NCBI GenBank assembly: GCA_035309485.1
Contig: DATGFC010000041.1
Span: forward strand, 5,426-69,425
Origin: Candidatus Sulfotelmatobacter sp.
Lineage (GTDB): Bacteria; Acidobacteriota; Terriglobia; Terriglobales; Acidobacteriaceae
Reading direction: 5' to 3'
DNA length: 64,000 bases
Below are positions 21,194 to 60,579 of the stretch, piece after piece. Below the pieces are notes generated by a model. The model made no database searches and was not told where the DNA came from. It saw nothing but the letters and a program-made list of their open reading frames with translations. Position numbers and translations under genes: made by a program. How positions within the stretch are numbered: the first letter of the stretch is position 1; each line of letters begins with the position of its first letter.

Positions 21194-23047
<1,854 letters not shown>

Positions 23048-41079: not shown

Positions 41080-41215
41080 TGCTCCCTCCACCTGAACGGC
41101 GGTTTTATCGAGCCTGGGGCAGGCCAAACCGCTCTAATGGGATCCTACCCTGATTTGGAACACCAATCCAAGCGGGAAGTTGTCGTGCATTCGAGGAAAA
41201 TTGCTCGGGATGGAC

Positions 41216-42961: not shown

Positions 42962-44775
42962 TCATCGCAGGAACCACAAGAATGTTCCCCCCAGCAGCGC
43001 CGTGCCTGCCGAGAGCCACGCAACATAGTCGCCGGAGTGCCCGCTATGAATCCTTCGCAGCGACCCGTTACCCAGCTCCAGGCTTCGCATGAACCTGAGC
43101 GTCCGACCAAACTTCTTGCGGAAGACGCTGCCCAGGGCCAGGAGCAGCGCGAGAATTCCCGCGACGCTGGTGCGCAGAATGGATGAGGAGAGAGACTCGG
43201 CCGGAGACATTTCCGGCGGCGGAGGCTCGGCATTGTCGAGAACAGTACTCGCGTAGCTGGATTGATTCACGAAAGTCTGCGCGTTGGCTTCCGCGAGACC
43301 GCGCACGCGCGGAATCGCCGGCAAGCTGATCGCGAGCAGAATCAGCGCCGCTGCCGGCAACCACATCACGATCGGAGTTCGCCCGTGCATTTGTTCGGTT
43401 TCGGCTCGTTCTTCGATTTGAGAGGCTTCATCGGTCGGCGCAGGTTCTCCCCATCCAAGAAAAATCCGAAAGAAGACGCGCAGCACGGCGGCCGCGGTAA
43501 TCGTTCCACAAAAATAAAGAGGTAAGGCACCCAGCTCTGGTGATGAGCGATCGCATCCTCGGAGATCATGCTCTCGCCCAGTAACGTCCCGAAGGGCCAG
43601 CATCCCGCCAGGCCCCAGGCTCCCAGTACGAACAACGCACCCGTGAACCACAAGCCTCGCCCGCGACCGTGCAGATGATCTTCACCAATTTTTTGCAGCC
43701 GGTGCAGGACGATTCCGGCGCAAAGGAATAATGCGCCCTTGATCGCGCCATGCGAAAGCGCGTATAGCAGAAATCCGCCCAGCGCTTTGGGGCTGAACAA
43801 CGCGATGCCTGCCAGCATGAGTCCCGCATGGGAGATCGTTGAAAATGCCAACAAGCGTTTGAGGTGATGCTCGGCGTAGCACATGAAGCCGCCGACGATG
43901 CAGGTAAGCGCCGCGAGAATTAAGAAGATTTCGCGCAAGGCCGTGATGTGCCCCGCCAGCGCGCCATGAAAGGTCGTCCAATAAATGCGGGCTACCGCAT
44001 AAATGCCAAGCTCGACCATGACACCGGAAAACAGCACGCACACGGGGCTGGGCGCGACTGCGTGGGCATCCGCCAGCCAGAAATGAAAAGGAACGATCGC
44101 GGCTTTGGCCATGAATCCCACCGCAATCAGCAAAAAGGCGAGCACGACGGGCCGCCCCGCATGCGTGCCCAGTGATCGTCCAATCTGCGCGAAATTCAGC
44201 GCCCCGGTTTCCGCATAGAGCAGCCCGATCCCGAGTACGATCATGAAAGCACCCACTGTGTTCACGACCGCGAAATTGTATGCGCCCTGCAGCGGCGCCG
44301 GTTCCAGTGTCTTCAGCCCGCACAGCGCAAAGGCGGAAACGCTCATCAATTCGAAAAAAACAAACAGGTTAAACAGGTCGCCGGTATAGCTGAAGCCGCA
44401 CATCGCGGCCATGAAGATCAGCATCAGCGGCTGAAAATGATTCTCGGTATCCTCAAAGATTTTCCACGAAAAAATCAGTCCTGCGGTGGTAAGCAAAGCC
44501 ACCAGCATGGCAATCGAGGCGCCGATCGCATCAACGCTGAAGCAGATTCCGAGTGCAACCTGGGGGTTGCGTGGCCACCAGTTGCCAAACCAGTACGTAT
44601 ACGGTTGCAGCCATACTTCTCGCAGAATGACGATCGTCATCCACAGCGTCGCGCCCGCAGTGGCGATAGAAAGGGCGTCGCAGAATCGGCGGCCCAGCCA
44701 TTGCCCGGCGAGCGCCAGGAACGCCGCCACAATCAGGGGAATCGCAACTGGCTGCGGGATGAGTGTAGTCAGCAT
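42962..44775 (-). pseudogene. mrpD: Mrp/Mnh antiporter subunit D (NuoN/MbhH-like) with an apparent frameshift near 43520..43540
   Basis: Frame A (43366..44775) is a good NuoN/MnhD-like protein until ...ISEDAIAHHQSW and then turns non-membrane-like. Frame B (42962..43651) continues with ALPLYFCGTITAAAVLRVFFRIFLGWG...HSGDYVAWLSAGTALLGGTFLWFLR. The total span of 1814 nt is one short of a multiple of three. Confidence 0.65.
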
Positions 44776-45122
44776 CAGCCCGTTAGAATCCGTAATTCTT
44801 CAGGATCGATGGTATTGGCGAGTTCGTTCGCCTTGACCACCATGGCCAACAGTAATGCCGCCACGGTTGCCTCCACGACAATGTCGGTCAGCATGAGCGC
44901 CTGCACCAGGGGATCGACGACCGTTGTGCCCACGGGGATATCGGCGAAGACAGGTGCCGTCCCTCCCACTTTGTAACCGACCGTCAGCAGCAGAACGTAA
45001 GTCGAAGTCTGCAGCACGGCGAGGCATACTACCTGGTGAACCAGATTCTTGCTGGTCACAATTCCGTAGAGTCCCCACAGAAAAATCCAGGCCGCAATGA
45101 AATAAGGCACATGAAGAATCAT
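44775..45122 (-). CDS. mrpC: Mrp/Mnh antiporter subunit C (NuoK/MbhG-like)
   Basis: MILHVPYFIAAWIFLWGLYGIVTSKNLVHQVVCLAVLQTS. The start ATG at 45122 overlaps the mrpB stop (ATGA), and its stop overlaps the mrpD ATG. Confidence 0.85.
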   Translation of the reverse strand: MILHVPYFIAAWIFLWGLYGIVTSKNLVHQVVCLAVLQTSTYVLLLTVGYKVGGTAPVFADIPVGTTVVDPLVQALMLTDIVVEATVAALLLAMVVKANELANTIDPEELRILTG

Positions 45123-45877
45123 GATTTTTTTCGTAACTCCGCTTCCACGATTTTGCGCAGGTAGATCTGCGTCAGCTGCACGAATCCACCCGTTACTTCC
45201 ACACCTACGCACACGCTGATGACTGCAATCGTTCCCGAAGAAAATAAGTCACCTGTTGTTCCGAGCGGAACGAAGTTCGTGAGGAAATGCGTACCAGCCA
45301 GCAGCGCCGAAATTCCGATGATGGCGTACCCTCCCGCCCCTCCGCACTCGGCCACTTTCACCAGCGCGCTCGATGTGATCTTTTCGAAAGCCCCGACATT
45401 GCCCGCCAGATAGAGCAGGATTGGTGCCGATGCCAGAATCACACCACCCTGAAAGCCGCTCCCCGGAGTTAATTGCCCGTGAGTAGCAATGTAGAACCCG
45501 AATACGATCATCAAGCCCATGATGGCCTGGGTCGATATCCGCAATGCGTCCGACACTGGCAGTTCGTCCTGCTCTTGGGCATTTGAATTGCGCTTGTGGC
45601 CCTTCTTGTCGTCGGGACGGAACAGCAGAAGCACTCCCAGCACGGCGGCGAACAGGATGAATTCCTCGCCCAGAGTGTCGAACGCGCGATAGTCGTAATT
45701 GATGGCGTTCACCACGTCGGTGGCGTGCCGCTCGTAGACGGCTACCTGTGTGACCACGTAGCCGTAGGGTCCTCGATAATCGCCCATGGGCGGCAAATCT
45801 AGAAATGCCAACACGAAGATGACGGCGAGGGCTGCCGCAGACACCAGAAACAAAGTTGTGCGAGCGCGCAAGTTCAT
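45119..45877 (-). CDS. mrpB: Mrp/Mnh antiporter subunit B (MnhB domain)
   Basis: NAINYDYRAFDTLGEEFILFAAVLG is an MnhB signature. The protein is polytopic. Confidence 0.85.
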   Translation of the reverse strand: MNLRARTTLFLVSAAALAVIFVLAFLDLPPMGDYRGPYGYVVTQVAVYERHATDVVNAINYDYRAFDTLGEEFILFAAVLGVLLLFRPDDKKGHKRNSNAQEQDELPVSDALRISTQAIMGLMIVFGFYIATHGQLTPGSGFQGGVILASAPILLYLAGNVGAFEKITSSALVKVAECGGAGGYAIIGISALLAGTHFLTNFVPLGTTGDLFSSGTIAVISVCVGVEVTGGFVQLTQIYLRKIVEAELRKKS

Positions 45878-46137
45878 TTGCTTCCTTTGCGCTGCTTTTG
45901 CTGGTTATGCCGGCGCATCCTGGTGAGCGCCAGCAGGATCATCAGCGGCAGCATGACCGCCCCGATGGTGATTTGCGACAGCGCCACATCTGGCGCCTGG
46001 AAAATAAAAAACATCAACGCGCACAGCAGCCCATAAAAACTGAGCGTGACCACCTGGGGCTTGGGATCGCGAGTCAGAACTACCCCGGGGGCGGCCACGG
46101 CCACCAGCAGCAGGCTCATCCATTGCAGCAATCTCAC
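45874..46137 (-). CDS. DUF4040 / MbhD-like small membrane subunit (equivalent to the MrpA C-terminal segment)
   Basis: 87 aa with three hydrophobic helices. It contains FFIFQAPDVALSQITIGAVMLPL and has 4-nt overlaps with both neighbouring genes. Confidence 0.7.
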   Translation of the reverse strand: MRLLQWMSLLLVAVAAPGVVLTRDPKPQVVTLSFYGLLCALMFFIFQAPDVALSQITIGAVMLPLMILLALTRMRRHNQQKQRKGSK

Positions 46138-46490
46138 GGCTTCCGCTCCGGCATCACGAGTTCGTCGTTGGGATGAATGGGCACCTCTTCTCCCGGTTGC
46201 GGATTCCAGTCCTTGGTTTCCGCAATGCGGAAGGCGCGCGCCGCCGCGTGCGTCACTACAGTGTTCATGCCGGTCAATACCAGCGTGGTCGCCAGCGCCT
46301 TGAATGATTCTGGCTTCAGGCCGTCCTGAAGAAAGATCGCGATCGTGAATAAAGCCGCGCTGATCGAGGCGGGCGGCGAAATAAAGTGCATGCGCTGGTA
46401 GGGATCTCTCATCCGCAGCATGCCAAGTACGGAGAGGAGCGTCAGCAGCACCCCAATCGCCAGCAGAACATCGATGGTGATGGCTTTCAT
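46134..46490 (-). CDS. mrpG: Mrp/Mnh antiporter subunit G
   Basis: VLGMLRMRDPYQRMHFISPPASISAALFTIAIFL is MnhG-type. Confidence 0.85.
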   Translation of the reverse strand: MKAITIDVLLAIGVLLTLLSVLGMLRMRDPYQRMHFISPPASISAALFTIAIFLQDGLKPESFKALATTLVLTGMNTVVTHAAARAFRIAETKDWNPQPGEEVPIHPNDELVMPERKP

Positions 46491-46508
46491 GGGTGGTGAA
46501 AGGTTTCC

Positions 46509-46760
46509 TTAGAGATGGCGCGCCAGAAAGCGGGCGAAGACGATTCCGCCGCCAAACGACATGAGAGCAAGGGTGAGCGCCAGATCCATCATAGGCATTC
46601 GCTGGAAGGCCATGGTCAGTAACATCAGCAGCAGCGTGATCACCACTCCCGCCATATAAAACGCGATCAGCCGCTGGCGCACCTCTCCGCTGACCGCAAC
46701 CCAGGTGAGTGGCACCAATGTGAAAATCATCACTTCGGCAGCCAGTTCCCAGGCGTTCAC
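46509..46760 (-). CDS. mrpF: Mrp/Mnh antiporter subunit F
   Basis: 83 aa with three transmembrane segments, lying between the E and G subunit genes. The sequence is MnhF-like. Confidence 0.8.
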   Translation of the reverse strand: MNAWELAAEVMIFTLVPLTWVAVSGEVRQRLIAFYMAGVVITLLLMLLTMAFQRMPMMDLALTLALMSFGGGIVFARFLARHL

Positions 46761-47257
46761 GCTCGGGCTCCTAACTGCTCAGTCATCTGGGGAACCGAAC
46801 TGCGTTTGATCTGATGAAACAGCAGCGTACGTTGATTTGGATTGATACCCAGGACAATGAAGTTGGGTGCAGCCGTGGTATAGACCACGGCTAAGACCCG
46901 GCGCGCAGTTCGGTGCGGATCTTCCTTCGTGCCTGGTTCATAGCGCGACACGCGGAAGAGCGACTGCCCCCGCTCCACTCCCAGTGCATCTTTGGCGGCG
47001 ACCGACAGGACTTCCCAGGTGCCCGAAAGCAAATACCAGGACAGGCGCCAACAAGTCAGCAATTCACCTAGTGTGGGCGAAAACGGCGCAGGATAATTGA
47101 CCGTTACCACCAGCATTCCCGCAGCCGTCAAAGCCGCAGCTATGACGCCGATCAGAAGTTCATGCAGTGAAAAGGTTCCAACCAAAACCAGCCAGAAAAG
47201 ATAGGAGGAGGGCAGCGTCACACCCAAAATAGCCGCGAATTTCCCTGCATTTTTCAC
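46757..47257 (-). CDS. mrpE: Mrp/Mnh antiporter subunit E
   Basis: 166 aa with a GTG start and two N-terminal transmembrane segments followed by a soluble domain, as in MnhE. It is the first gene of the operon. Confidence 0.8.
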   Translation of the reverse strand: MKNAGKFAAILGVTLPSSYLFWLVLVGTFSLHELLIGVIAAALTAAGMLVVTVNYPAPFSPTLGELLTCWRLSWYLLSGTWEVLSVAAKDALGVERGQSLFRVSRYEPGTKEDPHRTARRVLAVVYTTAAPNFIVLGINPNQRTLLFHQIKRSSVPQMTEQLGARA

Positions 47258-47335: not shown

Positions 47336-47809
47336 CTACGTCAAGCTCTTCGCCGATTCCTTCAGGTACGCCAGCACTTGCTCGGCGTGCCCGTCGGCCT
47401 TGACGTTCTCGAAAACGTGTTCGATCTTCCCATCCGGACCAATGATGAACGTCGTGCGCGCCACGCCCCTGACTTTCTTGCCGTACATGTTCTTATCTTT
47501 CACGACGCCAAAGGCCTCGGCCACTTTCTTATCGGCATCTGCCAGCAGCGGAAACGGAAGCTTTTCCTGCTCCTGAAACTTCTTCTGTGCCTTCGAGGTA
47601 TCGGGGGAGACGCCAAGCAGCACGGCGCCGGTTTTTTGAATCTGTTTATATGTATCGCGGAACCCGCGAGCCTCGACGGTTCAACCGGGGGTGTTGGCCC
47701 GTGGGTAAAAATAGAGAACGACGGTCTTGCCGCGCAGGTCCTTGAGCGCGATCTCTTTCCCGTTCTCGTCGGGCAAAATAAAGTCGGGAGCCTTATCATT
47801 GACTTGCAT
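47336..47809 (-). CDS. bcp: Bcp/PrxQ-type peroxiredoxin with TGA (candidate selenocysteine) at the peroxidatic Cys position
   Basis: My own translation reads MQVNDKAPDFILPDENGKEIALKDLRGKTVVLYFYPRANTPG[TGA]TVEARGFRDTYKQIQKTGAVLLGVSPD...AYLKESAKSLT. The TGA is at 47681..47683. The track shows only the C-terminal 95 aa. Confidence 0.7.
47655..47669 (-). promoter_or_regulatory. SECIS-like hairpin downstream of the in-frame UGA of bcp
   Basis: The mRNA reads UGA-ACCGUCGAGGC-UCGCGG-GUU-CCGCGA. The stem is 6 bp, starts 11 nt after the UGA, and has a G/U-containing apical loop. Confidence 0.45.
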
Positions 47810-47828
47810 GAGTATTTCTCCGGGAAAA

Positions 47829-49448
47829 ATGAAGTTGAGCGCCCATCGCGGGGAGTCAAAAGCCCCGTACTCTCGCGAAAAGCGCGGAAATCGGGGAGCA
47901 TCCCTGCTTTCGAGACGCCCTCAATCGAGCAGTTTACACCGCTTGGTGGGCCCATTTTGTGCGCTCGCAGTTCTTTTGGGAATGGCTGCGAGCCCAAAGG
48001 CAACGGCGCAAGAAGAACGCCCGCAGATCCCGGTCGGCGAGCGAAAATTCCCCGCAAAAAAAGATACGGGCCCGCGCGCGGTCGCGATTCTGCGCATGAC
48101 TGACAACAACAAGGCATCCCTCGTACCGATCGCCATTCTGATCAACGGCAAGTTCTGGGATGCAACCGCGTATAAGGCGGACCCGGTTCCGATGGCGCTC
48201 GACTCAGGCACAGTTTATGAGGCCGAGCGCACCGGCAGTTCTCTGGGACTGTTCACGGTCAGCAGCGCGCTGCATAGCAACGCGCCTAACAGCCAAGCGC
48301 CGTGGATTGGAACGGGGGCGTGGAAGCCCACCGGCACCGAAGCACCGAAACCCGCGCTGAAAGCCAATATCACGCCGGTCGGCATCGAGTCCGATGACGC
48401 GCCGCCCAGGCTGACCCATGAGCCCGCCAAAGCGGCGCCCGCGAACACCGCTCCGGCTTCGACCACGGCCCCTGTTTCTAATGCACCGCCCGCAACCGCG
48501 CCCAAGCCCAGCGGCAGCTCTGATAGCGACGAACCGCCTCGCCTGAACAGACCGACTTCGCCTGCACCGTCTCCTGCCCCTGATTCCAAGCAGCCGGCAC
48601 AGTCTGCCCCAACTTCTCCCGCACAGAATGATCCCAAGTCTGGCCAGGCCAAGGACACGAAATCCAATGTCGCGACTTCGGACAGCGGTGCCGACGAGGC
48701 CAATCGCCCCATTTTGCGCCGTGGCAAGCCGGCAGAATCGTTCGCCGATGAGGATGTGCCCGGGTATAGCAAGCCGGGCGCAAACAGCGCGTCCTCTTCG
48801 ACCAGCGGCGAAAAAGCTGTCGAAGCCAAAGCCGCCGCTCCTGCCGACGTCAAGCTGATTCCCGCCATCTCTGATGCCGGCGGTCCACCGCCGCATTCTT
48901 ATGCCTTCGAGTGGATTAAGGGTGAAGAGGAAGACCGGCGCGCGCAGATGATCGCTCTGGCCAAGCAACAGGTGCAAGCCTACGTGACGGCGCGGGACCG
49001 GGCGAAAATCACGCCCACGCATCCTCAGCCCTCGAAGCGTGCTGCCATCAAAGTCAAGGAACCGCTGCTCGACAATGTGCAGATGACCGCGTACGATCTG
49101 TGGAATTCGAATCAGCCGATCATCGTGCTCAGCGCGCAAGCGCACCTGCCGCCACCAGCTCCGGGAGCCCCGCAATCCGCGGTCTCGTCCGACCTGCAGT
49201 ACTCGGTGATGCTCGTCGCCTATCCTGATATCTACAACAACCTGCACACACTGTATTCAGGCGTCACCGACAAGTTTCATCTCGACCTCACGCCGCAACT
49301 CGAACTGGTTGACGCCGTTGACGCCGACGGTGACGGGCGCGGCGAGTTGCTGTTCCGGGAGACCTCCGACATGGGCACGGGCTGGGTAATCTACCGCGCC
49401 ACCGCGGACAAGCTTTACAAGATGTTCGACAGCTTGCGTTCGGAGTAG
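47829..49448 (+). CDS. Hypothetical secreted protein with a Pro/Ala/Ser-rich central region
   Basis: The hydrophobic signal-like segment LVGPFCALAVLLGMAASPKATAQ is present. The C-terminus contains DADGDGRGELLF (FG-GAP/Ca-loop-like). The start is uncertain: ATG 47829, or TTG/GTG at 47943/47946. Confidence 0.55.
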   Translation: MKLSAHRGESKAPYSREKRGNRGASLLSRRPQSSSLHRLVGPFCALAVLLGMAASPKATAQEERPQIPVGERKFPAKKDTGPRAVAILRMTDNNKASLVPIAILINGKFWDATAYKADPVPMALDSGTVYEAERTGSSLGLFTVSSALHSNAPNSQAPWIGTGAWKPTGTEAPKPALKANITPVGIESDDAPPRLTHEPAKAAPANTAPASTTAPVSNAPPATAPKPSGSSDSDEPPRLNRPTSPAPSPAPDSKQPAQSAPTSPAQNDPKSGQAKDTKSNVATSDSGADEANRPILRRGKPAESFADEDVPGYSKPGANSASSSTSGEKAVEAKAAAPADVKLIPAISDAGGPPPHSYAFEWIKGEEEDRRAQMIALAKQQVQAYVTARDRAKITPTHPQPSKRAAIKVKEPLLDNVQMTAYDLWNSNQPIIVLSAQAHLPPPAPGAPQSAVSSDLQYSVMLVAYPDIYNNLHTLYSGVTDKFHLDLTPQLELVDAVDADGDGRGELLFRETSDMGTGWVIYRATADKLYKMFDSLRSE

Positions 49449-51135: not shown

Positions 51136-51170
51136 TCTTGAATTCGAGATTCAGAGTGCACATCCGGTGT

Positions 51171-51205
51171 CTTAAATCTGCAATCTAAAATCTGCGATCT
51201 GCACT
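51171..51205. repeat. Array of 5 heptamers, CTNNAAT type
   Basis: Units read cttaaat ctgcaat ctaaaat ctgcgat ctgcact. The array lies 7 nt beyond the 3' end of the flavin reductase gene. Confidence 0.75.
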
Positions 51206-51211
51206 CCGGCT

Positions 51212-51712
51212 CTACCGCCCCTGCTCCCCGCCCACCTCGCAGTACTTTCCGCGGAAAAACAGCAGCGGCTTGCCTTCGTGCACGATCACGTCTTCGACTT
51301 CGGCGATGAAGATCGTGTGATCTCCAGCCACTTCGGCGGAGTGCAAGCGGCATTCGAGATACGCGAGCGAACCGCGCAGCATGGGCGTGCCGTGAAGGGT
51401 GCGGTCGAAGCGCGCTCCAGCCTCGGCCTCGGCGTTTTCGTGGTCTCGCTCGGGGCGCGCGTAATACTCGGAGATAGCGCGCTGTCCTTCGGCCAGGACA
51501 TTGATGCCGAAACGCTTCTTGGCGTGCAGGTGCGCGTGCGTGCGGGTGGTGTGGTCAACGCATACCAGCACCAGCGTAGGATCGAGCGACACCGACGCAA
51601 AAGCGTTGGCTGTCATGCCGTGGACCGTGCCTTCGAGGTCGACCGTAATGATGGTGACTCCGGTAGCAAACGCTCCCATGGCCTTGCGGAAGTCAGTTGG
51701 GGTCAGCGGCAT
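51212..51712 (-). CDS. Flavin reductase family protein (FMN-binding split barrel)
   Basis: FRKAMGAFATGVTIITV...GMTANAFASVSLDPTLVLVCVD is typical of the flavin reductase-like domain. Confidence 0.88.
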   Translation of the reverse strand: MPLTPTDFRKAMGAFATGVTIITVDLEGTVHGMTANAFASVSLDPTLVLVCVDHTTRTHAHLHAKKRFGINVLAEGQRAISEYYARPERDHENAEAEAGARFDRTLHGTPMLRGSLAYLECRLHSAEVAGDHTIFIAEVEDVIVHEGKPLLFFRGKYCEVGGEQGR

Positions 51713-51726
51713 CGTTCTGAGTGCTG

Positions 51727-51872
51727 ATTGCAGATTTCAGATTTAAGATTTTAGGCTTTAGTCTCAGATTTCAGGCTTTAGGTTGCAGATGCAAACCCCG
51801 CCGCACCGTCTTACTTCTGCATTCTGAAATCTACAATCTGCAATCTTCAATCTTAAATCTACAATCCTAAAT
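51727..51872. repeat. Two inverted heptamer arrays: ATTNNAG x10 (51727..51795), a 21-nt spacer, then CTNNAAT x8 (51817..51872)
   Basis: First arm reads attgcag atttcag atttaag attttag gctttag tctcag atttcag gctttag gttgcag atgcaaa. Second arm reads ctgcatt ctgaaat ctacaat ctgcaat cttcaat cttaaat ctacaat cctaaat. Confidence 0.8.
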
Positions 51873-51924
51873 CGCATCCGCCCGCTACATTACCACGGCA
51901 GGCCGTTGTATCATTCGATTCAAC

Positions 51925-53061
51925 GTGAAGACGCAGGCTGCAATTTCGCGCGAAGAAGCGGTTCGCCTGATTCGCTGCGCGGACCGGGATCTGCCGGAGC
52001 TGCTCGAGGCCGCGCAGGAGGCCAGAGATGCGTTCAAACCCGGCGCCATCACCTATTCGAAAAAGGTTTTTCTACCCCTGACGAATCTCTGTCGTGATTA
52101 TTGCGGGTACTGCACGTTCCGGAAGGATCCCGGCGAACCAGGCGCGCACACCATGCTGCCTGATGAAGTGCTGGCAGTCGCTCGAGCCGGGGAGCAACTC
52201 GGATGCACCGAGGCCCTGTTCAGCTTGGGCGATAAGCCGGAGTTGCTGTTTCCCGAGATGCGCGAGACACTTCGTCAACTCGGGTACAAATCGACTCTGC
52301 ATTATCTCGAGGCGATGTGCGAGCTTGTGCTGCGGGAGACCACCTTGCTGCCGCATCCCAATCCGGGGCTGCTGAGCTCCGAGTGGATTGCGCGACTGGC
52401 GCAGGTTTCGCCCAGCATGGGGCTTATGCTGGAGACTACGAACGCGGCGCTGCTGGCTTCCGGGGCGGCGCATGATAACGCTCCCGATAAAGTTCCCGCA
52501 AAGCGGCTGCGCACCATCGAAGAGGCGGGCAAGCAGGGCGTTCCGTTTACCACGGGATTGCTGATCGGCATCGGTGAATCCCCCGAGGATCGCGTCGATA
52601 CGCTGCTGGCGATCGGCAAGTTGCAGGAACGCTTCGGGCACATTCAGGAGGTCATTGTGCAGAATTTTCGCGTGAAGCCCGAGGTCCCCATGGCCCGCTG
52701 GCCGGAGCCTTCCCGCGGTGAGATGCTGCGGGCTGTGGCGGTAGCTCGCTTATTACTGCCTGAGGTGAATATTCAGGCTCCGCCCAATCTTTCTGCACCG
52801 TACTATGAAGAGTTGATTGACGCCGGGATTAACGACTGGGGAGGGATTTCGCCGCTGACCCCCGATTTCATCAATCCGGAAAAGCCTTGGCCGTACCTGG
52901 AGCAGCTTCGCCTGCGCACCGAGGCCAGGGGATTTGAGCTGCGGCAGCGCTTGCCGGTCTATCCGGAATTCGTGGCTGCAGTGGTGAACCGGCCGGGCTT
53001 GTTGGCCGATCGAGTGCGTGCCGCATCTGGCGAGGACCAGCTGGCGCGGAGGGCTGCATGA
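51925..53061 (+). CDS. cofG: 7,8-didemethyl-8-hydroxy-5-deazariboflavin (FO) synthase subunit CofG (radical SAM)
   Basis: GTG start. It carries the CRDYCGYCTF radical-SAM cluster motif and is followed by cofD with an ATGA overlap. Confidence 0.88.
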   Translation: MKTQAAISREEAVRLIRCADRDLPELLEAAQEARDAFKPGAITYSKKVFLPLTNLCRDYCGYCTFRKDPGEPGAHTMLPDEVLAVARAGEQLGCTEALFSLGDKPELLFPEMRETLRQLGYKSTLHYLEAMCELVLRETTLLPHPNPGLLSSEWIARLAQVSPSMGLMLETTNAALLASGAAHDNAPDKVPAKRLRTIEEAGKQGVPFTTGLLIGIGESPEDRVDTLLAIGKLQERFGHIQEVIVQNFRVKPEVPMARWPEPSRGEMLRAVAVARLLLPEVNIQAPPNLSAPYYEELIDAGINDWGGISPLTPDFINPEKPWPYLEQLRLRTEARGFELRQRLPVYPEFVAAVVNRPGLLADRVRAASGEDQLARRAA

Positions 53062-54044
53062 TTTGCGTTTTGAGCGGCGGGACCGGAGGCGCGAAGTTCG
53101 TCGATGGTTTGCGCCAGGTCATGCCCGCGGAAGAGATTACGCTGGTCGTCAACACCGGCGACGACCTGCTGTGGTGGGGCCTGTACGTTTCCCCCGACAT
53201 TGACTCGATCACCTATGTCCTTTCAGGAATGCTGAGCCGGGAGCGGGGATGGGGCGTGAAGGGCGATACATTCCTTTGCTTGCAGGCCATGGGACAGCTG
53301 GGCGAGCCCACATGGTTTCACACCGGAGACCGCGATCTGGCGATGCATCTGCTGCGCTCGCGGCTGCTGGCCGAAGGCAAAACGTTGCTGGAAGCGACCA
53401 AAGTGATCTCTGACAAACTCGGGGTCAAGGCACGGGTGCTGCCCATGAGCAACTCGCGGGTGGAGACCCGCGTGGATACGCCCATCGGCGAGTTGAGCTT
53501 CGAAGAATATTTTGTGCAGCGCTGGTACCAGGATCCAGTCAAGTCGGTGCGCTTTGCCGGCGCTTCGGATGCGGAGCCGGCGCCGGGAGTGATCGAGGCA
53601 ATTACGTCTGCCGATGCCGTGATCGTCGCGCCAAGCAATCCGGTGACGAGCATTGGCCCGATTCTGGCGGTCCCTGGGATTCACGACGCGCTGCTGCGTG
53701 CACGCGGAAAAGTCGCGGCGATCAGCCCGATTGTGGGCAACGCGCCGGTCGCGGGTCCGGCGGGCATTCTGATGCAGGCGCACGGGCTGCCCTGCTCCAT
53801 TGGCGGCGTGGCCCACGCGTACGAAGATTTTCTGGACATTCTGGTCTGCGATACGCGCGACGCCCGTGCGGCCGATATGCTGCGCCAGAATGGCCTACGC
53901 GTGCACTGCACGCAGACGATTATGCGCAGCTCCGACGATAAGGCCGCGCTGGCGCGCGAAGTGCTGGCCTGCCTGGCAGCGGACGCATCCAGCGACAAAC
54001 CTGCCCCGGCCGTTCCTCTCCCAGCTTCGGACTCCCAACCGTGA
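53058..54044 (+). CDS. cofD: 2-phospho-L-lactate transferase (FO phosphotransferase)
   Basis: MICVLSGGTGGAKFVDGL...VNTGDD is characteristic of CofD/FbiA. Confidence 0.9.
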   Translation: MICVLSGGTGGAKFVDGLRQVMPAEEITLVVNTGDDLLWWGLYVSPDIDSITYVLSGMLSRERGWGVKGDTFLCLQAMGQLGEPTWFHTGDRDLAMHLLRSRLLAEGKTLLEATKVISDKLGVKARVLPMSNSRVETRVDTPIGELSFEEYFVQRWYQDPVKSVRFAGASDAEPAPGVIEAITSADAVIVAPSNPVTSIGPILAVPGIHDALLRARGKVAAISPIVGNAPVAGPAGILMQAHGLPCSIGGVAHAYEDFLDILVCDTRDARAADMLRQNGLRVHCTQTIMRSSDDKAALAREVLACLAADASSDKPAPAVPLPASDSQP

Positions 54045-54697
54045 TCCTGGTTCCCATCAAAGACACTGCGGCGGCGAAACAGCGGCTGGCAGCGGTGCTC
54101 GATCAATCTTCACGCACGGACCTGGCGCGTGCCATGCTGCACGATGTGCTCACTGCATTGCATCTCTGGAAGAACCGCCCGCCGGTCGGCATCGTGACCG
54201 GCGACTCCTACGCCAGCAATCTGGCGGCGGAGTATGGATTCGAGATCATTCCGGACCGCGACAATCCCGGAGAGACCGGAGCCATCGAGATGGCGACGCG
54301 TGCGTGCGTGGAGCGCGGGATAGCGGAGACACTCGTGATTCCGGCTGACATCCCGCTGCTTCAAGCTTGGGAATTGGAAGAAGTTTTGCGGAGCGCGCCC
54401 TCCCAAGGCAGCGTGCTGGTTCCTGCCGGCGATGGCCGCGGCACCAACGCGGCTCTGCGGCGGCCGGCCGATTTGTTTCCTTTGCGTTTTGGCAACGACA
54501 GCTTCAAGCCGCATCATGCGGCGGCGCAGGCCACGGGCAAACCCTGCGTCGTGCTCAAGCTTCCCGGAATCGCAGTCGACGTGGACAATCCCGCCGACCT
54601 TCTGCAACTGATTTCCTTGCCGGGTGAAACCCGGGCGCAAAAGTTGGCCCGGACATGGAATTTGACCGAACGCTTGCAGGCCGCGAGATCGTTGTGA
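54041..54697 (+). CDS. cofC: 2-phospho-L-lactate (or PEP/3PG) guanylyltransferase
   Basis: The GTG start overlaps the cofD stop (GTGA). ILVPIKDTAAAKQRL...GDGRGTNAL is CofC/FbiD-like. Confidence 0.85.
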   Translation: MILVPIKDTAAAKQRLAAVLDQSSRTDLARAMLHDVLTALHLWKNRPPVGIVTGDSYASNLAAEYGFEIIPDRDNPGETGAIEMATRACVERGIAETLVIPADIPLLQAWELEEVLRSAPSQGSVLVPAGDGRGTNAALRRPADLFPLRFGNDSFKPHHAAAQATGKPCVVLKLPGIAVDVDNPADLLQLISLPGETRAQKLARTWNLTERLQAARSL

Positions 54698-55470
54698 ACA
54701 AGCGTGCATCCTCCAAAGTCCACGAGGTTCGGCTGATTCCCATCCTTGTTCAAGACGATATTCAGGCGGGAGATTCCATCCCCTTTAAATTGCTGGACTC
54801 CATGCGCTCGCAAAGGCTGAAGTTCCAGGCCGGGGACGTTCTCGTCGTAAAACATAAGATCGTCTCCAAGTCTGAAGGGCGACTGATCGATCTGTCTACG
54901 ATTCAGCCGTCGCCAGAGTCGGTGGAGTGGGCAAAGCAGTATGATCTCGACGCGCGCGTGATCGAACTGGCACTGCGGGAAAGCCGCTCGGTGATCCGCC
55001 GCAAGAACGGGGTACTGATCACCGAGACCCATCACGGATTCTTGTGCGCGAACAGCGGCGTCGATATGTCGAACGTGGACGGGGGCGGACACGCTGTGCT
55101 GTTGCCGGAAGATGCGGATCGATCCGCCGCCGACCTGCGGCGTGTCCTGAAAAAACGCACCGGGGTTTCCATCGCCGTGATCATCAGCGACAGCTTCGGC
55201 CGGCCCTGGCGCGAGGGGCTGACTGACTTTGCCATTGGCATCTCCGGGATGAAGCCCCTGCGCGACGATCGGGGACGGCGCGATTCCCAGGGCTACAAAC
55301 TGAAGGCTAGCATCGAAGCCGTCGCCGACGAATTGGCATGCGCAGCGGGTCTGGTATGCGGCAAGCTCAATCGTGCTCCCGCGTGCCTTGTGCGGGGGTT
55401 CCAGTACCAGGCAGGCGTGGGCGGAATAAAGGAACTGTTGCGGCCTCCGGAAACCGATCTATTTAGGTAA
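54694..55470 (+). CDS. cofE: Coenzyme F420-0:L-glutamate ligase (stand-alone, no fused nitroreductase domain)
   Basis: VVKHKIVSKSEGR...GFLCANSGVDMSNV...VIISDSFGRPWREG are CofE motifs. The GTG at 54694 overlaps the cofC stop (GTGA). The track start at 54655 is the alternative. Confidence 0.85.
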   Translation: MNKRASSKVHEVRLIPILVQDDIQAGDSIPFKLLDSMRSQRLKFQAGDVLVVKHKIVSKSEGRLIDLSTIQPSPESVEWAKQYDLDARVIELALRESRSVIRRKNGVLITETHHGFLCANSGVDMSNVDGGGHAVLLPEDADRSAADLRRVLKKRTGVSIAVIISDSFGRPWREGLTDFAIGISGMKPLRDDRGRRDSQGYKLKASIEAVADELACAAGLVCGKLNRAPACLVRGFQYQAGVGGIKELLRPPETDLFR

Positions 55471-55558
55471 GACTTCCGCTACACTGGGAGAACGTGCTGG
55501 CGCGAGTTTTGACTCCACCGGCAGAGACCTCGCAAGTCGCTTCTCGATGGAGAGGATT

Positions 55559-56791
55559 ATGCACGCCGAACTTTCTCTCTCGGAGCTGGAAAGCTTTCCT
55601 TCGCTGGATTGGCGCGACATTGCTCCCCGCGTGACTCCTTCCGTGCGCGGCTCTCTCGAAAAAATTCTGGAAACGCAAAATGGTGCTTCACTTTCTCTCG
55701 AAGAGTGTTACGCGCTCGCGAATTCGGAAGGTGACGATCTGCTGGGATTGCTCGTGGCCGCGAACCTGCTACGTGCGGAACTCGTTGGGAACATCGTTAC
55801 GTACGTGGTCAATCGCAATATTAATTTCACGAATATCTGTTTTGTGGGATGCAAGTTTTGCGCCTTCAGCCGCGGGCCGCGTGAGGCTGACACTTACTTT
55901 TTAACCATGGAGCAGATCGGGCAGAAAGCGCGCGAGGCTTGGCAACTGGGCGCGACCGAGGTTTGCATTCAAGGCGGGCTGCCGCGCGATCTGCCCAAGT
56001 TTCATTATCGTGACGTTCTGCGGGCGGTGAAGCAATCGGTGCCGCAGATGCATATTCACGCCTTTTCGCCCATGGAGATCGTTTATGGCGTGGAACTCAC
56101 CGGCATGCCGCTGGCCGACTATCTTTCGATGCTACGCGACAACGGCCTAGGCACCCTTCCGGGGACAGCCGCCGAGATTCTCGATGACGAAATTCGGCAC
56201 ATCCTGTCGGCCAATAAGCTTTCCACTGCTCAATGGATTGAAGTGATCCGCACGGCTCATCTCTGCGGCATTCGCAGCACCTCAACCTTGATGTATGGCC
56301 ACGCGGAGAAGCCGGAGCATTGGGTCAGGCAGTTGCATCTCTTGCGCGAGATCCAGTATGAGACCGGCGGCTTCACCGAGTTCGTGCCTCTGGGTTTCGT
56401 TCATCAGAACACACTGCTCTTTCATCAGGGACTGGCGCGGTCCGGGCCGACGCTGGCCGAGCATCTCAAGGTGCACGCGCTGGCCCGCTTGATGCTGGCG
56501 GGATCCATCAACAACATTCAGGTTTCGTGGGTGAAGTTGAACCGGAGGCTATCGCAGCTTTGCCTGCACGCGGGCGCGAACGATTATGGCGGCACGCTCA
56601 TGGAAGAAAACATTTCGCGCGAGGCCGGAGCCACCGCCGGGCAGTACACCAGCCCGGAAGATTTTCAAGCGCTAATTCTGGAAGCCGGGCGTATTCCAGC
56701 CGAGCGCAACACCACCTACTCGCGCATCCACATCAAAATGCCGGTGGAGGAATTCACCGCGGAGCAGTCGCTCCAGGCTGAGTTTGCATGA
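55559..56791 (+). CDS. cofH: FO synthase subunit CofH (radical SAM)
   Basis: NICFVGCKFCAF cluster motif. The ATG at 55559 is preceded by the ribosome-binding site GGAGAGG. The ATG at 55547 is the alternative. Confidence 0.88.
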   Translation: MHAELSLSELESFPSLDWRDIAPRVTPSVRGSLEKILETQNGASLSLEECYALANSEGDDLLGLLVAANLLRAELVGNIVTYVVNRNINFTNICFVGCKFCAFSRGPREADTYFLTMEQIGQKAREAWQLGATEVCIQGGLPRDLPKFHYRDVLRAVKQSVPQMHIHAFSPMEIVYGVELTGMPLADYLSMLRDNGLGTLPGTAAEILDDEIRHILSANKLSTAQWIEVIRTAHLCGIRSTSTLMYGHAEKPEHWVRQLHLLREIQYETGGFTEFVPLGFVHQNTLLFHQGLARSGPTLAEHLKVHALARLMLAGSINNIQVSWVKLNRRLSQLCLHAGANDYGGTLMEENISREAGATAGQYTSPEDFQALILEAGRIPAERNTTYSRIHIKMPVEEFTAEQSLQAEFA

Positions 56792-57492
56792 GCGCGCATG
56801 ACGTCAGCCCAGTTCGCCCCATCGCCATCATTGGAGGCACCGGCGCTGCGGGCATGGGCCTGGCCTTGCGCTGGGTGCGCGCCGGAGAGACTGTCATCAT
56901 CGGATCGCGCGAGGAAGCTCGCGCCCGGCAGGCTGCGGCCAGCATTCAGCGCAGGGTCGGCGAGCATGCCCGGATTTCCGGCAGGGAGAACAGTTCCGCC
57001 TGCGCCGCCGCGGACATCCTGATGTTGACTGTCCCATTTGAAGGGCAGGCGTCGCTGATCAAGAAACTCAAGCCCTCGATTACCCCGGGCAGCATTCTGA
57101 TTGATGCCACTGTGCCTCTGGCTGCGGGACTCGGCGGGCGCGCGTCACGGACTCTTGGCGTATGGCAGGGATCCGCCGCCCAGCAGGCCGCCGAACTCGT
57201 CCCCGACGACGTCAGCGTAGTAGCCGCGTTTCACAACGTCTCCGCTGATCTGATGGGAGGAGATAATCCGCTGGACTGCGACGTAATCGTGTGCAGCGAT
57301 GATCCCGACGCGGCGCAACTCACTCGCGATCTCGCCGCCAAGATTCCCGGCATCCGCCCGATCGATGGCGGCAGGCTGGAGAATGCGCGCATCGTCGAAC
57401 AGATTACTGCCTTGCTGGTCGGCCTCAACATGAGGCATAAAGGCCACAGCGGAATCCGCATCACCGGATTGCCGCCCACCGCGTACCGCTGA
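56788..57492 (+). CDS. npdG: NADPH-dependent F420 reductase
   Basis: IAIIGGTGAAGMGLALRWVRAGETVIIGSR is a Rossmann N-terminus of the NpdG/Fno family. It has an ATGA overlap with cofH. Confidence 0.85.
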   Translation: MSAHDVSPVRPIAIIGGTGAAGMGLALRWVRAGETVIIGSREEARARQAAASIQRRVGEHARISGRENSSACAAADILMLTVPFEGQASLIKKLKPSITPGSILIDATVPLAAGLGGRASRTLGVWQGSAAQQAAELVPDDVSVVAAFHNVSADLMGGDNPLDCDVIVCSDDPDAAQLTRDLAAKIPGIRPIDGGRLENARIVEQITALLVGLNMRHKGHSGIRITGLPPTAYR

Positions 57493-57520: not shown

Positions 57521-59071
57521 TTGAGCCAGAACCAGAACCTCGACGCGGCGCGCCAGTATCACAGCGGAACCAAGCATTCCTATGTCAGCATCCGCATGCA
57601 TCCGCATTCCCTCGACTGGGAAAATAAGCCGCTGCTGTTCAAGATTTATCCCACATTGGAAGTGACGCGGCTGCCTCGGGATTTTCAGGACACCGGGGTT
57701 CCAGCGCTGACCGCGATTGCCGCCACGCCCATTGGCGGGCAACGAGAGGCCATTCCCGACCTGGAAACGCTGGCCCAACTGCTCTTCTTTTCTGCCGGAG
57801 TCACCAGAAGCAAGAAGTACGAGGGCGGTGAAGCATTCTTTCGCGCGGCCGCCTGCACCGGCGCGCTGTACGAAATCGATCTCTACGTCGTGTGCACCGA
57901 TCTTCCGGCGAAAATTGGGCCCGGGCTTCCCGCCGGCCTCTACCACTTCGGCGCGGCCGAGTTCGGATTGCGCCAACTGCGGGCGGGAGACTATCGGCAG
58001 GCGGTCGCAAACGCCTCCGGGAATGATCCCTCGATTGCGCATGCCCCGGTGACCATCGTCTGCACCGGCACGTACTGGCGCAATGCATGGAAATATCATT
58101 CGCGTACCTACCGGCACTTTGGCTGGGACAACGGGACCATCCTGGCGAACCTGCTGGCCATCTCCGCCGCCTCGAAGCTTCCGGCCAAAGTCATTTCCGG
58201 TTTCGTGGATTCAGAAGTGAACGCGTTGCTGAGTCTAGATACGAAGCGCGAAGTCGCGTTCTCGATGGTTGCCATTGGACATCAGGAAGCCGAGCCGGCA
58301 AAATCGCCTGAGATTTACCCGCTGGAACTACCGATCGTCCCCTATTCCAGGGAAGAGGTGGACTATCCGGCAATGCGGAAGATGCATGAGGCCTCGTCCT
58401 TGGACTCCGCCGCCGAAGTCGAGGCGTGGCGCGGGAAGACAGCGCCTCATAATGATCCGCCAAGTAAGGGCGAGACGACATCCCTGCGATTGCCCGAAGA
58501 CTCACGCGTTCCTCGCGATACCATTGAGCAAGTCATCTCGCGGCGAGGTTCGACAAGACAGTTCGCCCGCGATCCCCTCACCAAGGCGCAGCTTTCTTTG
58601 ATCCTCGATCGCGCGACCCGAGGCGTTCCTGCAGATTTCCTCGATCCCTTTGGCAGCCATCTCAACGACCTGTATTTGATCGTCAACAATGTGCACGGGC
58701 TCGACGCCGGAGCCTACTTCTATCACTGGGAGAAGAAGTATTTCGAACTGCTCAAGGCGGGAGATTTCCGCGAAAAGGCGGGCTACCTTGGGCTGGAACA
58801 GCAGATTCCGGCGGATGCGTCAGTGGACGTGTTTTTCCTGGCCGACCTGCCGAGAATTCTCGAGCGCTACGGAAATCGCGGCTACCGGGCTGTCCAGTTA
58901 GAAGCGGGGATTTTGGGCGGCAAACTCTATCTCGGGGCCTACGCGCAGCGGCTTGGAGCGAGCGGCCTGACGTTCTACGACGATGATGTGGTCAGCTTTT
59001 TCTCCCCGCACGCGCGGGGAAAGAGCGCAGTCTTTCTGGTTGCACTGGGACGGAGCGCGTCGCGGAAGTAA
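57521..59071 (+). CDS. SagB/ThcOx-type two-domain nitroreductase-family dehydrogenase
   Basis: TTG start with the ribosome-binding site aaggag. It contains YHSGTKHSY, ACTGALYEIDLYVV, RRGSTRQFARDPLTKAQLSLILD and GYRAVQLEAGILGGKLYLGAYA...LTFYDDDV. Confidence 0.8.
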   Translation: MSQNQNLDAARQYHSGTKHSYVSIRMHPHSLDWENKPLLFKIYPTLEVTRLPRDFQDTGVPALTAIAATPIGGQREAIPDLETLAQLLFFSAGVTRSKKYEGGEAFFRAAACTGALYEIDLYVVCTDLPAKIGPGLPAGLYHFGAAEFGLRQLRAGDYRQAVANASGNDPSIAHAPVTIVCTGTYWRNAWKYHSRTYRHFGWDNGTILANLLAISAASKLPAKVISGFVDSEVNALLSLDTKREVAFSMVAIGHQEAEPAKSPEIYPLELPIVPYSREEVDYPAMRKMHEASSLDSAAEVEAWRGKTAPHNDPPSKGETTSLRLPEDSRVPRDTIEQVISRRGSTRQFARDPLTKAQLSLILDRATRGVPADFLDPFGSHLNDLYLIVNNVHGLDAGAYFYHWEKKYFELLKAGDFREKAGYLGLEQQIPADASVDVFFLADLPRILERYGNRGYRAVQLEAGILGGKLYLGAYAQRLGASGLTFYDDDVVSFFSPHARGKSAVFLVALGRSASRK

Positions 59072-59181: not shown

Positions 59182-60579
59182 CTATTCATCAACCACCGGC
59201 GTGGACATCTCTTCCGCGGGTTCGCCTCCTGTCATGGCCTGCGCTACGATCAGCCTGCGGGCCTCGACGCGAATCTTGGGCAGTTGCACGCCGAACCACC
59301 AGGCGCCCGCTACCGATGCGATGCCGCCGAGTGCGACCGTCATGGGAGCGCCAAGGCGATCGGAGAGCGCCCCGCCCAGCAACGCTCCCACCGGGGCCAT
59401 CCCCATGAACATCATTGAGTAGAGCGCCATGACCCTTCCCCGAAGTTCATCCGGCACCATGACTTGGATCAGTGTGTTCGAGGCGGCCATCTGCAGCATG
59501 ATGAAGTAGCCCACCGGCAACAACAGCAGTACGGAAAGCCAAAATGACTTGGAATATGCGAAGAGCATCAGGCTGACGCCGAATCCGGCGCAGCAGACAG
59601 CGACCCATCGGCCTAGGCCCTTCACACCGGAGCGCATGGCCAGCGTCAGGGCCCCAAGCAGCGCTCCAACTCCCGCCGCGCCCATCAGGATCCCCAGACG
59701 GACCGCCCCCAGATCATGCGATCCGATGAGCGAGGCAAACTCCTGGCCGCCGTTGCGCAGAATTTTGTCTGCAAAAATCGGCATCAGTACGACGTAGGGC
59801 ATTCCTGTCACGCTGACTAGTCCCAGCAGAATCAGCAACGCGCGAATCGGGGCAGTGCGGTTGACGAACCGAAAACCCTCGATGATGTGCTCCCAGGGCG
59901 AGGTTTTGGCCGACACGCGCGGCGACGCATCCACTTTCATCATCATCAGGCCGGCGATCACCGCGATGTAGCTGACGGCATTGGCAAAAAAGCACCAGCC
60001 TTCGCCCAACCGCGCCACCAGTACCCCAGCCACCGCAGGCCCAATCACCCGCGCTCCGTTGAACATCGAGGAGTTCAGTGCAATCGCATTCATCAGGTCA
60101 TCTTTGCCCACCATGTCCACCAGGAACGATTGACGCCCCGGGATATCGAAGGCGTTCACGACTCCCAGCAGGGCCGCCAGCACGAAAATGTGCCAGACCT
60201 GCACTTTTCCGCCTAACGTGAGGGCGGCCAGGATGAAGGCCAGGATCATGGAGGCGGTTTGCGTGGCGATGACAATGCGCTGCCGGTTTGCGCGGTCGGC
60301 CGTGATCCCGCCCAGCGGCGCTACCAGAAATACTGGGATCTGGCTGGCGAAGCCGACCGCCCCAAGCAGGGTACCGGAGCCAGTAAGGCGGTAAACCAGC
60401 CAGGACTGGGCCACCGTCTGCATCCAGGTGCCGATCAGGGAAATCAGCTGTCCACCGAAAAACAGCTGGAAGTTGCGATGCCGCAAGGCGCGTCCGGCGG
60501 CCTGCCAACTCACTCTCGGCGGCTCTGACTGAGCGCTTGCCGGCTCGTTTTTTGGAATGGGAACGTTCGACTCAGCCAC
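59182..60579 (-). CDS. MFS transporter (EntS/MFS_3-like exporter)
   Basis: 465 aa and polytopic. The N-terminal LRHRNFQLFFGGQLISLIGTWMQ is typical of this MFS subgroup. Confidence 0.82.
   Translation of the reverse strand: MAESNVPIPKNEPASAQSEPPRVSWQAAGRALRHRNFQLFFGGQLISLIGTWMQTVAQSWLVYRLTGSGTLLGAVGFASQIPVFLVAPLGGITADRANRQRIVIATQTASMILAFILAALTLGGKVQVWHIFVLAALLGVVNAFDIPGRQSFLVDMVGKDDLMNAIALNSSMFNGARVIGPAVAGVLVARLGEGWCFFANAVSYIAVIAGLMMMKVDASPRVSAKTSPWEHIIEGFRFVNRTAPIRALLILLGLVSVTGMPYVVLMPIFADKILRNGGQEFASLIGSHDLGAVRLGILMGAAGVGALLGALTLAMRSGVKGLGRWVAVCCAGFGVSLMLFAYSKSFWLSVLLLLPVGYFIMLQMAASNTLIQVMVPDELRGRVMALYSMMFMGMAPVGALLGGALSDRLGAPMTVALGGIASVAGAWWFGVQLPKIRVEARRLIVAQAMTGGEPAEEMSTPVVDE

Follow-up and report, generated by a model that had tools for sequence, protein, structure and literature searches.

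The 64-kb window analyzed here, a stretch of contig DATGFC010000041.1, carries seven genes, cofG-cofD-cofC-cofE-cofH-fno-NTR2, which form one unit, with a flavin reductase gene diverging from the same intergenic region. Judged by the families to which the gene products belong, this region is most probably a functional F420 biosynthesis operon, with a probability that we put at roughly 85% and that refers to both the identity of the genes and their F420-biosynthetic function. The initial annotation of the window had ended the cluster at npdG (here also called fno) and had missed the conserved seventh gene, NTR2, as well as the divergent flavin reductase gene. Both bear directly on the completeness of an F420 pathway based on phosphoenolpyruvate (PEP).

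Gene identities and layout

The six genes from cofG to npdG lie head-to-tail on the plus strand at positions 51925-57492, with the open reading frames (ORFs) as initially annotated, and all products score above the cut-offs of their NCBIfam models. Among the equivalog models, TIGR03550 matches CofG (51925..53061, GTG start, 378 aa) with 442 bits against a cut-off of 213, and TIGR01819 matches CofD, the transferase of the phospho-C3 acid to FO (53058..54044, 328 aa), with 329 bits (cut-off 257). The guanylyltransferase CofC (54041..54697, 218 aa) matches TIGR03552 with 147 bits (cut-off 105), the F420:glutamate ligase CofE (54655 or 54694..55470) TIGR01916 with 246 bits (cut-off 181), and CofH (55547..56791) TIGR03551 with 492 bits (cut-off 374). 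The product of npdG (56788..57492, 234 aa) is matched by TIGR01915 with 219 bits (cut-off 150) and also by PF03807, confirming the F420:NADPH oxidoreductase that had been recognized in the cluster.

The FO synthase is indeed split, as had been proposed, into the radical-SAM subunits CofG and CofH, which are encoded by separate ORFs and each match their own equivalog. The radical-SAM motif CxxxCxxC is intact in both (CRDYCGYC in CofG, CFVGCKFC in CofH), PF04055 matches both, and the FbiC model NF006687 matches each of them below its cut-off. CofE is likewise the stand-alone enzyme described initially, with PF01996 as its sole Pfam domain, no nitroreductase domain and a length of 258-271 aa depending on the start codon. 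Fusions of the actinobacterial Fbi type were rejected, as cofG and cofH are separate genes about 2.5 kb apart and CofE is unfused.

Overlaps of 4 nt join cofG to cofD (ATGA), cofD to cofC (GTGA) and cofH to npdG (ATGA), and the same overlaps are found in relatives. A fourth overlap among the five junctions, claimed for cofC/cofE, hinges on the start codon: GTGA is shared only if cofE starts at GTG 54694, whereas ATG 54655, which gives the longest ORF, makes cofE overlap cofC by 43 nt. The N-terminal extension of CofE before the sequence E-[VL]-R-L-I-P-I varies, and in relatives cofC and cofE do not overlap; we therefore count three overlaps as secure and the fourth as a matter of start-codon choice. 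Between cofE and cofH there are 76 nt, or 88 nt with ATG 55559 as the start of cofH; this codon is preceded immediately by the Shine-Dalgarno sequence GGAGAGG and yields a protein of 410 aa, the length of the orthologues in L001 and L003, and it is probably the start of cofH rather than the first ATG at 55547. (L-numbers denote loci of relatives, L001-L013 from genomes and L124, L127, L140, L144, L146, L148, L160 and L164 from metagenomes.)

NTR2 (57521..59071, 516 aa) follows on the same strand, starting 28 nt 3' of npdG with a TTG codon that has an AAGGAG ribosome-binding site 9 nt upstream. We infer that the genes are co-transcribed, given their overlaps, close spacing and kept order. The downstream boundary is marked by a convergent MFS transporter gene (59182..60579, minus strand; PF05977 and PF07690), which probably lies outside the operon; it adjoins the cluster in some relatives and has moved by several kb in L005, L007, L008 and L013.

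Conservation, inheritance and host

L001-L013 and further metagenome contigs have the same gene order, with the minus-strand flavin reductase gene followed by cofG, cofD, cofC, cofE, cofH, npdG and NTR2, at amino-acid identities of 71-92%; among the metagenome contigs, the order is complete in L124, L127, L144 and L148 and partial in L140, L146, L160 and L164. Every relative with an NTR2 identity of at least 72% keeps the arrangement as far as its contig extends. Six F420 families within 5.6 kb, with the cof order common to more than 20 related contigs, imply that the association did not arise by chance. In a sister clade represented by L134 (5512-7838) and L142, npdG and NTR2 are separated by an ABC transporter encoded on the same strand, with ATPase, permease and OpuAC-type binding-protein components.

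The host is an uncultured Candidatus Sulfotelmatobacter-like acidobacterium (Acidobacteriota, Terriglobia) of soil or peat, in agreement with the acidobacterial host suggested from gene content. The aspartyl-tRNA synthetase (AspRS) encoded at 21194-23047, 30 kb from the cluster, is 93% identical to a protein of a Candidatus Sulfotelmatobacter metagenome-assembled genome (MAG), and this match appears to be located on the same MAG contig as the orthologous cof cluster. The closest relatives in the genome scan are MAGs labelled Sulfotelmatobacter, Acidiferrales or Acidobacteriaceae. Downstream of the cluster, the window and L003 have the same MFS-PilZ-ParA-like synteny, and the G+C content is even across the region. 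Together, the AspRS identity, the downstream synteny and the even G+C indicate that the cluster is native to the lineage and vertically inherited; horizontal transfer was rejected on these grounds.

The order cofG-cofD-cofC-cofE-cofH-fno is specific to the clade of the window, whereas the other sampled Acidobacteria have npdG-cofD-cofC-cofE with cofG and cofH apart. The cluster resembles the archaeal-type pathway (PMC8498797) in its five enzyme families, its split FO synthase, its stand-alone CofE and the presence of an Fno gene, and differs from it in having two fixed neighbors in this clade, a flavin reductase and a SagB-type nitroreductase of tandem architecture. The suggestion that F420 is poorly documented in the lineage is correct as far as biochemistry is concerned; the genes themselves have already been recorded in multiple Acidobacteria genomes (Grinter and Greening 2021, PMC8498797), so the lineage is poorly documented rather than new for F420 and the six-gene cluster is a further example of a known cluster type.

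Predicted pathway and the substrate of CofC

The reactions of the pathway follow from established knowledge of the enzyme families; what the present analysis contributes is the identities and the arrangement of the genes. CofG and CofH would convert tyrosine and 5-amino-6-ribitylaminouracil into the deazaflavin FO, and CofC would use GTP to activate a phosphorylated C3 acid, either 2-phospholactate (2-PL) or PEP but not 3-phosphoglycerate (3-PG). CofD would then transfer the activated acid to FO, CofE would add the gamma-glutamyl tail, and Fno would exchange hydride between F420 and NADPH.

The prediction for CofC is based on an alignment of the window protein with Mtb-FbiD (6BWG) and with the Mycetohabitans enzyme for 3-PG (7P97), with the numbering verified via the conserved Mtb-FbiD residues K17, D116, T148, S166, D188 and D190. 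Residues K7, D103, T135, G151, S154, D180 and D182 of the window CofC align with the ligand and Mg residues of Mtb-FbiD, all of which are retained. At the diagnostic position, occupied by S162 in Mrhiz-CofC and by G163 in Mtb-FbiD, the window protein has Gly151, and Arg133 stands at the position of His145. Since 3-PG activation depends on a serine at the diagnostic position (Hasan et al. 2022, PMC8764529), a product of the 3PG-F420 type is unlikely. The claim that the substrate of CofC is unreadable from sequence can thus be narrowed: Gly151 argues against 3-PG, and 2-PL and PEP remain inseparable, as even CofC assays, let alone sequence, cannot distinguish between them (Hasan et al. 2022, PMC8764529).

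An alternative outcome is that the cluster yields another deazaflavin, either 3PG-F420 as in Mycetohabitans or FO only as in cyanobacteria. The best sequence match of CofC in the PDB is in fact the 3-PG guanylyltransferase 7P97 (E = 8.8e-18), with which it has the conserved Mg- and carboxylate-binding residues in common, and a split CofG/CofH is also the arrangement of cyanobacteria that make FO only. The Mycetohabitans enzyme has Ser162 and His145 where the window CofC, predicted to be of the 2-PL/PEP type, has Gly151 and Arg133, and the cluster retains cofC, cofD, cofE and fno in intact, conserved form, implying that the pathway extends beyond FO. We therefore consider either of these products highly improbable.

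Several observations weigh against a functional F420 operon. F420 biochemistry has been reported for no acidobacterium, the experiments being confined to Actinobacteria (PMC8498797). Domain searches and tblastn found no gene of the LLM/PF00296 or FDOR/PF01243 type among the roughly 50 ORFs of the 64-kb window, and F420-dependent LLM or FDOR genes were equally absent from the flanks of the close relatives, where a PNPOx-like gene of L003 scored weakly and is of the flavin mononucleotide (FMN) type.

The NTR2 protein

The SagB-type dehydrogenase domain TIGR03605 matches both halves of NTR2, with 108 bits for the N-terminal and 55 bits for the C-terminal half, and PF00881 matches the C-terminal half. 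The family has 900 representatives (50% clustering) at E < 1e-30. An AlphaFold (AF2) model of NTR2 reached a predicted local distance difference test score (pLDDT) of 95 and a predicted template modeling score (pTM) of 0.95. Its only full-length structural relative is PDB entry 3EO7, with a profile E-value of 2.5e-99 and, by Foldseek, E = 1.1e-38, a template modeling (TM) score of 0.75-0.80 and about 25% identity; the next structural matches are the azoline oxidases ThcOx/CyaGox, McbC and BmdC. An alignment of 46 diverse NTR2 members shows K191 and Y192 to be almost invariant; they line up with FKY of McbC and WKY of ThcOx, the Lys-Tyr catalytic motif of dehydrogenases of this type. R342, S344 and R346 in the C-terminal half are invariant or nearly so and may represent an FMN-phosphate motif. 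The picture that emerges from sequence and model is that of a putative FMN-type nitroreductase-fold protein, a fused pseudo-dimer with one complete SagB-like Lys-Tyr active site.

The relative 3EO7 (Ava_2154 of Anabaena variabilis, a 'putative nitroreductase' from structural genomics) has the same full-length tandem architecture, and the literature that mentions the structure leaves its function unassigned. Cyanobacteria produce FO, not F420, so 3EO7 need not share the role of NTR2. The model of the FbiB C-terminal domain, TIGR03553, matched neither half of NTR2 at E ≤ 10, and FbiB chains were found neither among the 43 PDB chains retrieved with the NTR2 family profile at E ≤ 10 nor among the 50 Foldseek matches listed. 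An orthologous relation of NTR2 to FbiE or the FbiB C-terminal domain was rejected, since none of these three comparisons provided a link.

The best family match, the SagB domain TIGR03605, and the closest characterized structures, the azoline oxidases ThcOx, McbC and BmdC, raise the possibility that NTR2 is unrelated to F420, being either a flavoenzyme of general function or, as part of a peptide natural-product pathway, an azoline dehydrogenase of the SagB type, and that it follows npdG in this clade by chance. Like the SagB, McbC, ThcOx and BmdC dehydrogenases, NTR2 has the FMN-binding nitroreductase fold and the Lys-Tyr motif, and most NTR2 homologues in other Terriglobia have unrelated neighbors. 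Azoline dehydrogenases act with a cyclodehydratase, a precursor peptide or a nonribosomal peptide synthetase (NRPS), partners that NTR2 does not have: neither the window nor L001 or L003 has a YcaO/cyclodehydratase, precursor peptide or NRPS gene close to NTR2. An azoline oxidase of ribosomally synthesized and post-translationally modified peptides (RiPPs) or of NRPS products was rejected for lack of such partner genes, the neighbors at these three loci being cof, MFS, PilZ and ParA-like genes.

NTR2 gene neighborhoods outside the clade

Outside the clade of the window, NTR2 homologues with 47-57% identity sit with F420 genes in varied orders. In L047, the order is npdG-cofD-cofC-cofE-NTR2, with a GTGA shared by the cofE stop and the NTR2 start, followed by a TIGR03618 FDOR, cofH and cofG. 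In L060, cofE is divergent from NTR2 and no other cof gene lies within 10 kb, and in L064 cofE-cofC-cofD-npdG is divergent from NTR2-FDOR. An F420-type LLM (TIGR03559, 471 bits, cut-off 335) followed by FDOR and then NTR2, with cofC nearby, is found in L054, L058 and L147, whereas L149 and L169 have an NTR2-FDOR pair, which in L169 lies about 2 kb from npdG-cofDCE. A Nitrosopumilales MAG (L081, 7090-11115) encodes an NTR2 of about 48% identity; about 1 kb upstream of it lie an FDOR (TIGR03668) and an LLM (TIGR03619), and there is no cof gene near.

The F420-linked loci occupy several separate places in a neighbor-joining tree of NTR2. Since a genome of 3-6 Mb has only a handful of cof genes, adjacency by chance should be well under 1% per locus, and the recurrence of the linkage in varied orders makes a functional tie of NTR2 to F420 likely. 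The same evidence speaks against an NTR2 unrelated to F420: the six or more gene orders that link it to cof genes or to F420-dependent ones, at several places in the tree and in one archaeon, are far above expectation; we regard that explanation as rather unlikely.

All-against-all clustering of the flanking ORFs revealed no NTR2 neighbor that is conserved beyond clade level. Recurrent neighbors were a NuoI-like ferredoxin, an SDR and an SYLF lipoprotein, which are housekeeping or clade-specific, and two further ones, which we take from their sequences to be polyamine-gene-like. A metagenome scan seeded with the archaeal NTR2 returned four short archaeal-type contigs only, with uninformative flanks. 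In the published literature, as searchable, we found no work combining SagB-type or tandem nitroreductases with F420 biosynthesis.

Some further features of these loci were observed. In L047, an IS630-family transposase gene (12061-12852) lies between NTR2 and the FDOR, cofH and cofG genes, suggesting a recent rearrangement of that cluster. The TIGR03618-type FDORs, a single group of orthologous small proteins 60-89% identical to the L058 member and in their own right associated with F420 clusters, recur beside cof genes, NTR2 or both in Acidobacteria (L047, L054, L058, L064, L147, L149, L165, L166 and L169); in L165 and L166, the FDOR is located between cofG and npdG with no NTR2 near. Near the cof operon of L169, there is a PhdYeFM antitoxin and PIN toxin pair and, separately, a HEPN/nucleotidyltransferase pair.

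Flavin reductase gene

The flavin reductase-like gene (51212..51712, minus strand) encodes 166 aa, is divergent from cofG and matches PF01613 with 148 bits; its best NCBIfam matches, StyB, FerA, HsaB and HpaC, are all under cut-off. It occupies the same divergent site beside cofG, at 80-86% identity, in every close relative with a contig reaching there (L001-L003, L005, L007-L013, L124, L127, L144 and L148). Its product is a possible source of reduced FMN.

Possible roles of NTR2

The reductase step that mycobacterial FbiB performs with its C-terminal domain on dehydro-F420-0 needs FMNH2, which was supplied in the assay via the flavin reductase Fre, and in organisms whose CofE stands alone, a reductase named 'CofX' has been postulated (Bashiri et al. 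2019, PMC6450877). A stand-alone FbiE is known from Thermomicrobium roseum (Braga 2020, as cited in PMC8498797). We tentatively propose that NTR2 is CofX, the dehydro-F420-0 reductase in PEP-based F420 synthesis, an assignment that on present sequence evidence has the odds against it. By this mechanism, CofC would take PEP and CofD would form dehydro-F420-0, the enolpyruvyl C=C of which NTR2 would reduce to the lactyl group. The FMNH2 would come from the neighboring flavin reductase in the window and from an F420-dependent split-barrel FDOR partner in other lineages, and NTR2 would replace the FbiB C-terminal domain (FbiE) that the stand-alone CofE lacks here. If NTR2 were CofX, its origin might be independent of that of the FbiB C-terminal domain and FbiE; it would act with a split-barrel partner that is of the NAD(P)H type here and an F420-dependent FDOR elsewhere, and it could conceivably serve the Acidobacteriota and possibly other NTR2-bearing lineages, including ammonia-oxidizing archaea; we hold both extensions to be as doubtful as the assignment itself.

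The proposal fits the gene neighborhoods in that the coupling of cofE and NTR2 in L047 and L060 mirrors the FbiB fusion. Mycobacterial FbiB and the NTR2 loci both have a nitroreductase-superfamily flavoprotein genetically coupled to cofE, with cofE followed by NTR2 in L047 reproducing the FbiB domain order, and a flavin reductase near NTR2 matches the FMNH2 requirement of FbiB. NTR2 differs from FbiB and FbiE in being a 516-aa tandem pseudo-dimer of the SagB/ThcOx branch, with an activity that is predicted only. The proposal also fits the chemistry, as SagB-type enzymes handle hydride at a carbon beside a carboxyl-type group: azoline dehydrogenases move hydride between FMN and a carbon next to such a group. 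Unlike in the azoline dehydrogenases, the proposed direction in NTR2 is reductive and would need an external flavin reductant. Another fitting observation is that NTR2 recurs with a split-barrel partner, a PF01613 flavin reductase here and an FDOR elsewhere, the two belonging to the same Pfam clan.

A number of findings count against NTR2 as CofX. No relation in sequence between the protein and the FbiB C-terminal domain was detectable, and the sequence of CofC cannot show that PEP is the substrate (PMC8764529). In two large Terriglobia subclades (58-64% identity), NTR2 stands alone beside housekeeping genes. Among six other acidobacterial npdG-cofD-cofC-cofE operons, sampled via CofD homologues, five lack a nitroreductase gene within 10 kb, and the remaining one (L169) has NTR2-FDOR. 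F420 users are found beside cof genes as well, with an FDOR flanked by cofG and npdG and an LLM following cofE (L165), so that adjacency cannot separate a biosynthetic enzyme from a consumer.

Much of this evidence is also accounted for if NTR2 uses F420 rather than makes it, which we consider quite possible, although somewhat short of an even chance. NTR2 would then be an FMN flavoenzyme that F420H2 reduces directly or via the FDOR or flavin reductase partner, with a quinone, an enone or a xenobiotic as candidate substrate, and the operon would combine cofactor synthesis and NADPH-dependent recharging by Fno with a single consumer. The source of the side chain would be 2-PL, or dehydro-F420 would be reduced by something else. 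Such a role is consistent with the FDOR and LLM classes of F420 users adjoining acidobacterial cof genes without a biosynthetic role, with the frequent pairing of NTR2 with a TIGR03618-type FDOR (L054, L058, L064, L147, L149 and L169), and with the archaeal NTR2 of L081, which is near FDOR and LLM but no cof gene. Many NTR2 genes, moreover, do not lie near cof genes, and most sampled cofDCE operons have no NTR2 nearby. What speaks for CofX and against a mere consumer is that the pairing of cofE with NTR2 mirrors the FbiB fusion, with the GTGA overlap in L047 and the pair alone in L060, and that no other candidate reductase was seen next to the stand-alone cofE genes paired with NTR2. We also know of no F420H2-dependent reductase with a nitroreductase fold, which we count against the consumer role.

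Intergenic repeats and other genes of the window

The divergent intergenic region between the flavin reductase gene and cofG (51713..51924), where the promoters presumably lie, contains inverted arrays of a 7-nt unit, as does 51136-51211 on the other side of the flavin reductase gene. The units are CAGATTT-like on one side and AAATCT[AG]-like on the other, and in each of the two intergenic regions beside the gene the arrays make up long, imperfect inverted repeats. The sequence CAGATTTCAGATTT has 8 matches with at most 2 mismatches, against 0.31 expected, all of them in 51136-51211 and 51713-51924. The RNA fold of 51713-51924 has a z-score of -2.8. In relatives, the spacing between the flavin reductase gene and cofG is only about 60 nt, suggesting that the repeat region is a lineage-specific insertion. 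No sigma-70 consensus site was found in 51713-51924, matches to consensus promoters and terminators were not more frequent than in shuffled sequence, and there was no Rfam match within 49-61 kb of the window.

Elsewhere in the window, several genes of a Mrp/Mnh-type multisubunit cation:proton antiporter (PF00361, PF04039 and, weakly, PF01899) are located at 43366-47257 and are followed at 47727-49448 by a gene for a 573-aa proline/alanine/serine-rich protein with no Pfam match. The ORF at 40249-41127 (minus strand), also with no Pfam match, contains at 40354-40436 a tandem repeat of a CCAACC-type hexamer, which can be described as about 13 copies or as 42-nt units occurring twice. A PIN-domain toxin gene lies at 36629-37054 (minus strand).

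Significance

The six-gene cluster is a well-resolved, vertically inherited example of F420 genes in abundant uncultured Acidobacteria of peat and soil, unsurprising in itself and helpful for the interpretation of metagenomes. The origin of the saturated lactyl side chain in organisms with a stand-alone CofE is an acknowledged gap, for which the candidates are an undiscovered source of 2-phospholactate or a dehydro-F420-0 reductase, 'CofX' (PMC6450877). NTR2, together with its flavin reductase or FDOR partner, provides a concrete and cloneable candidate for this gap in the pathway. If instead NTR2 uses F420H2, it would represent a new class of F420-dependent flavoenzymes with a nitroreductase fold.

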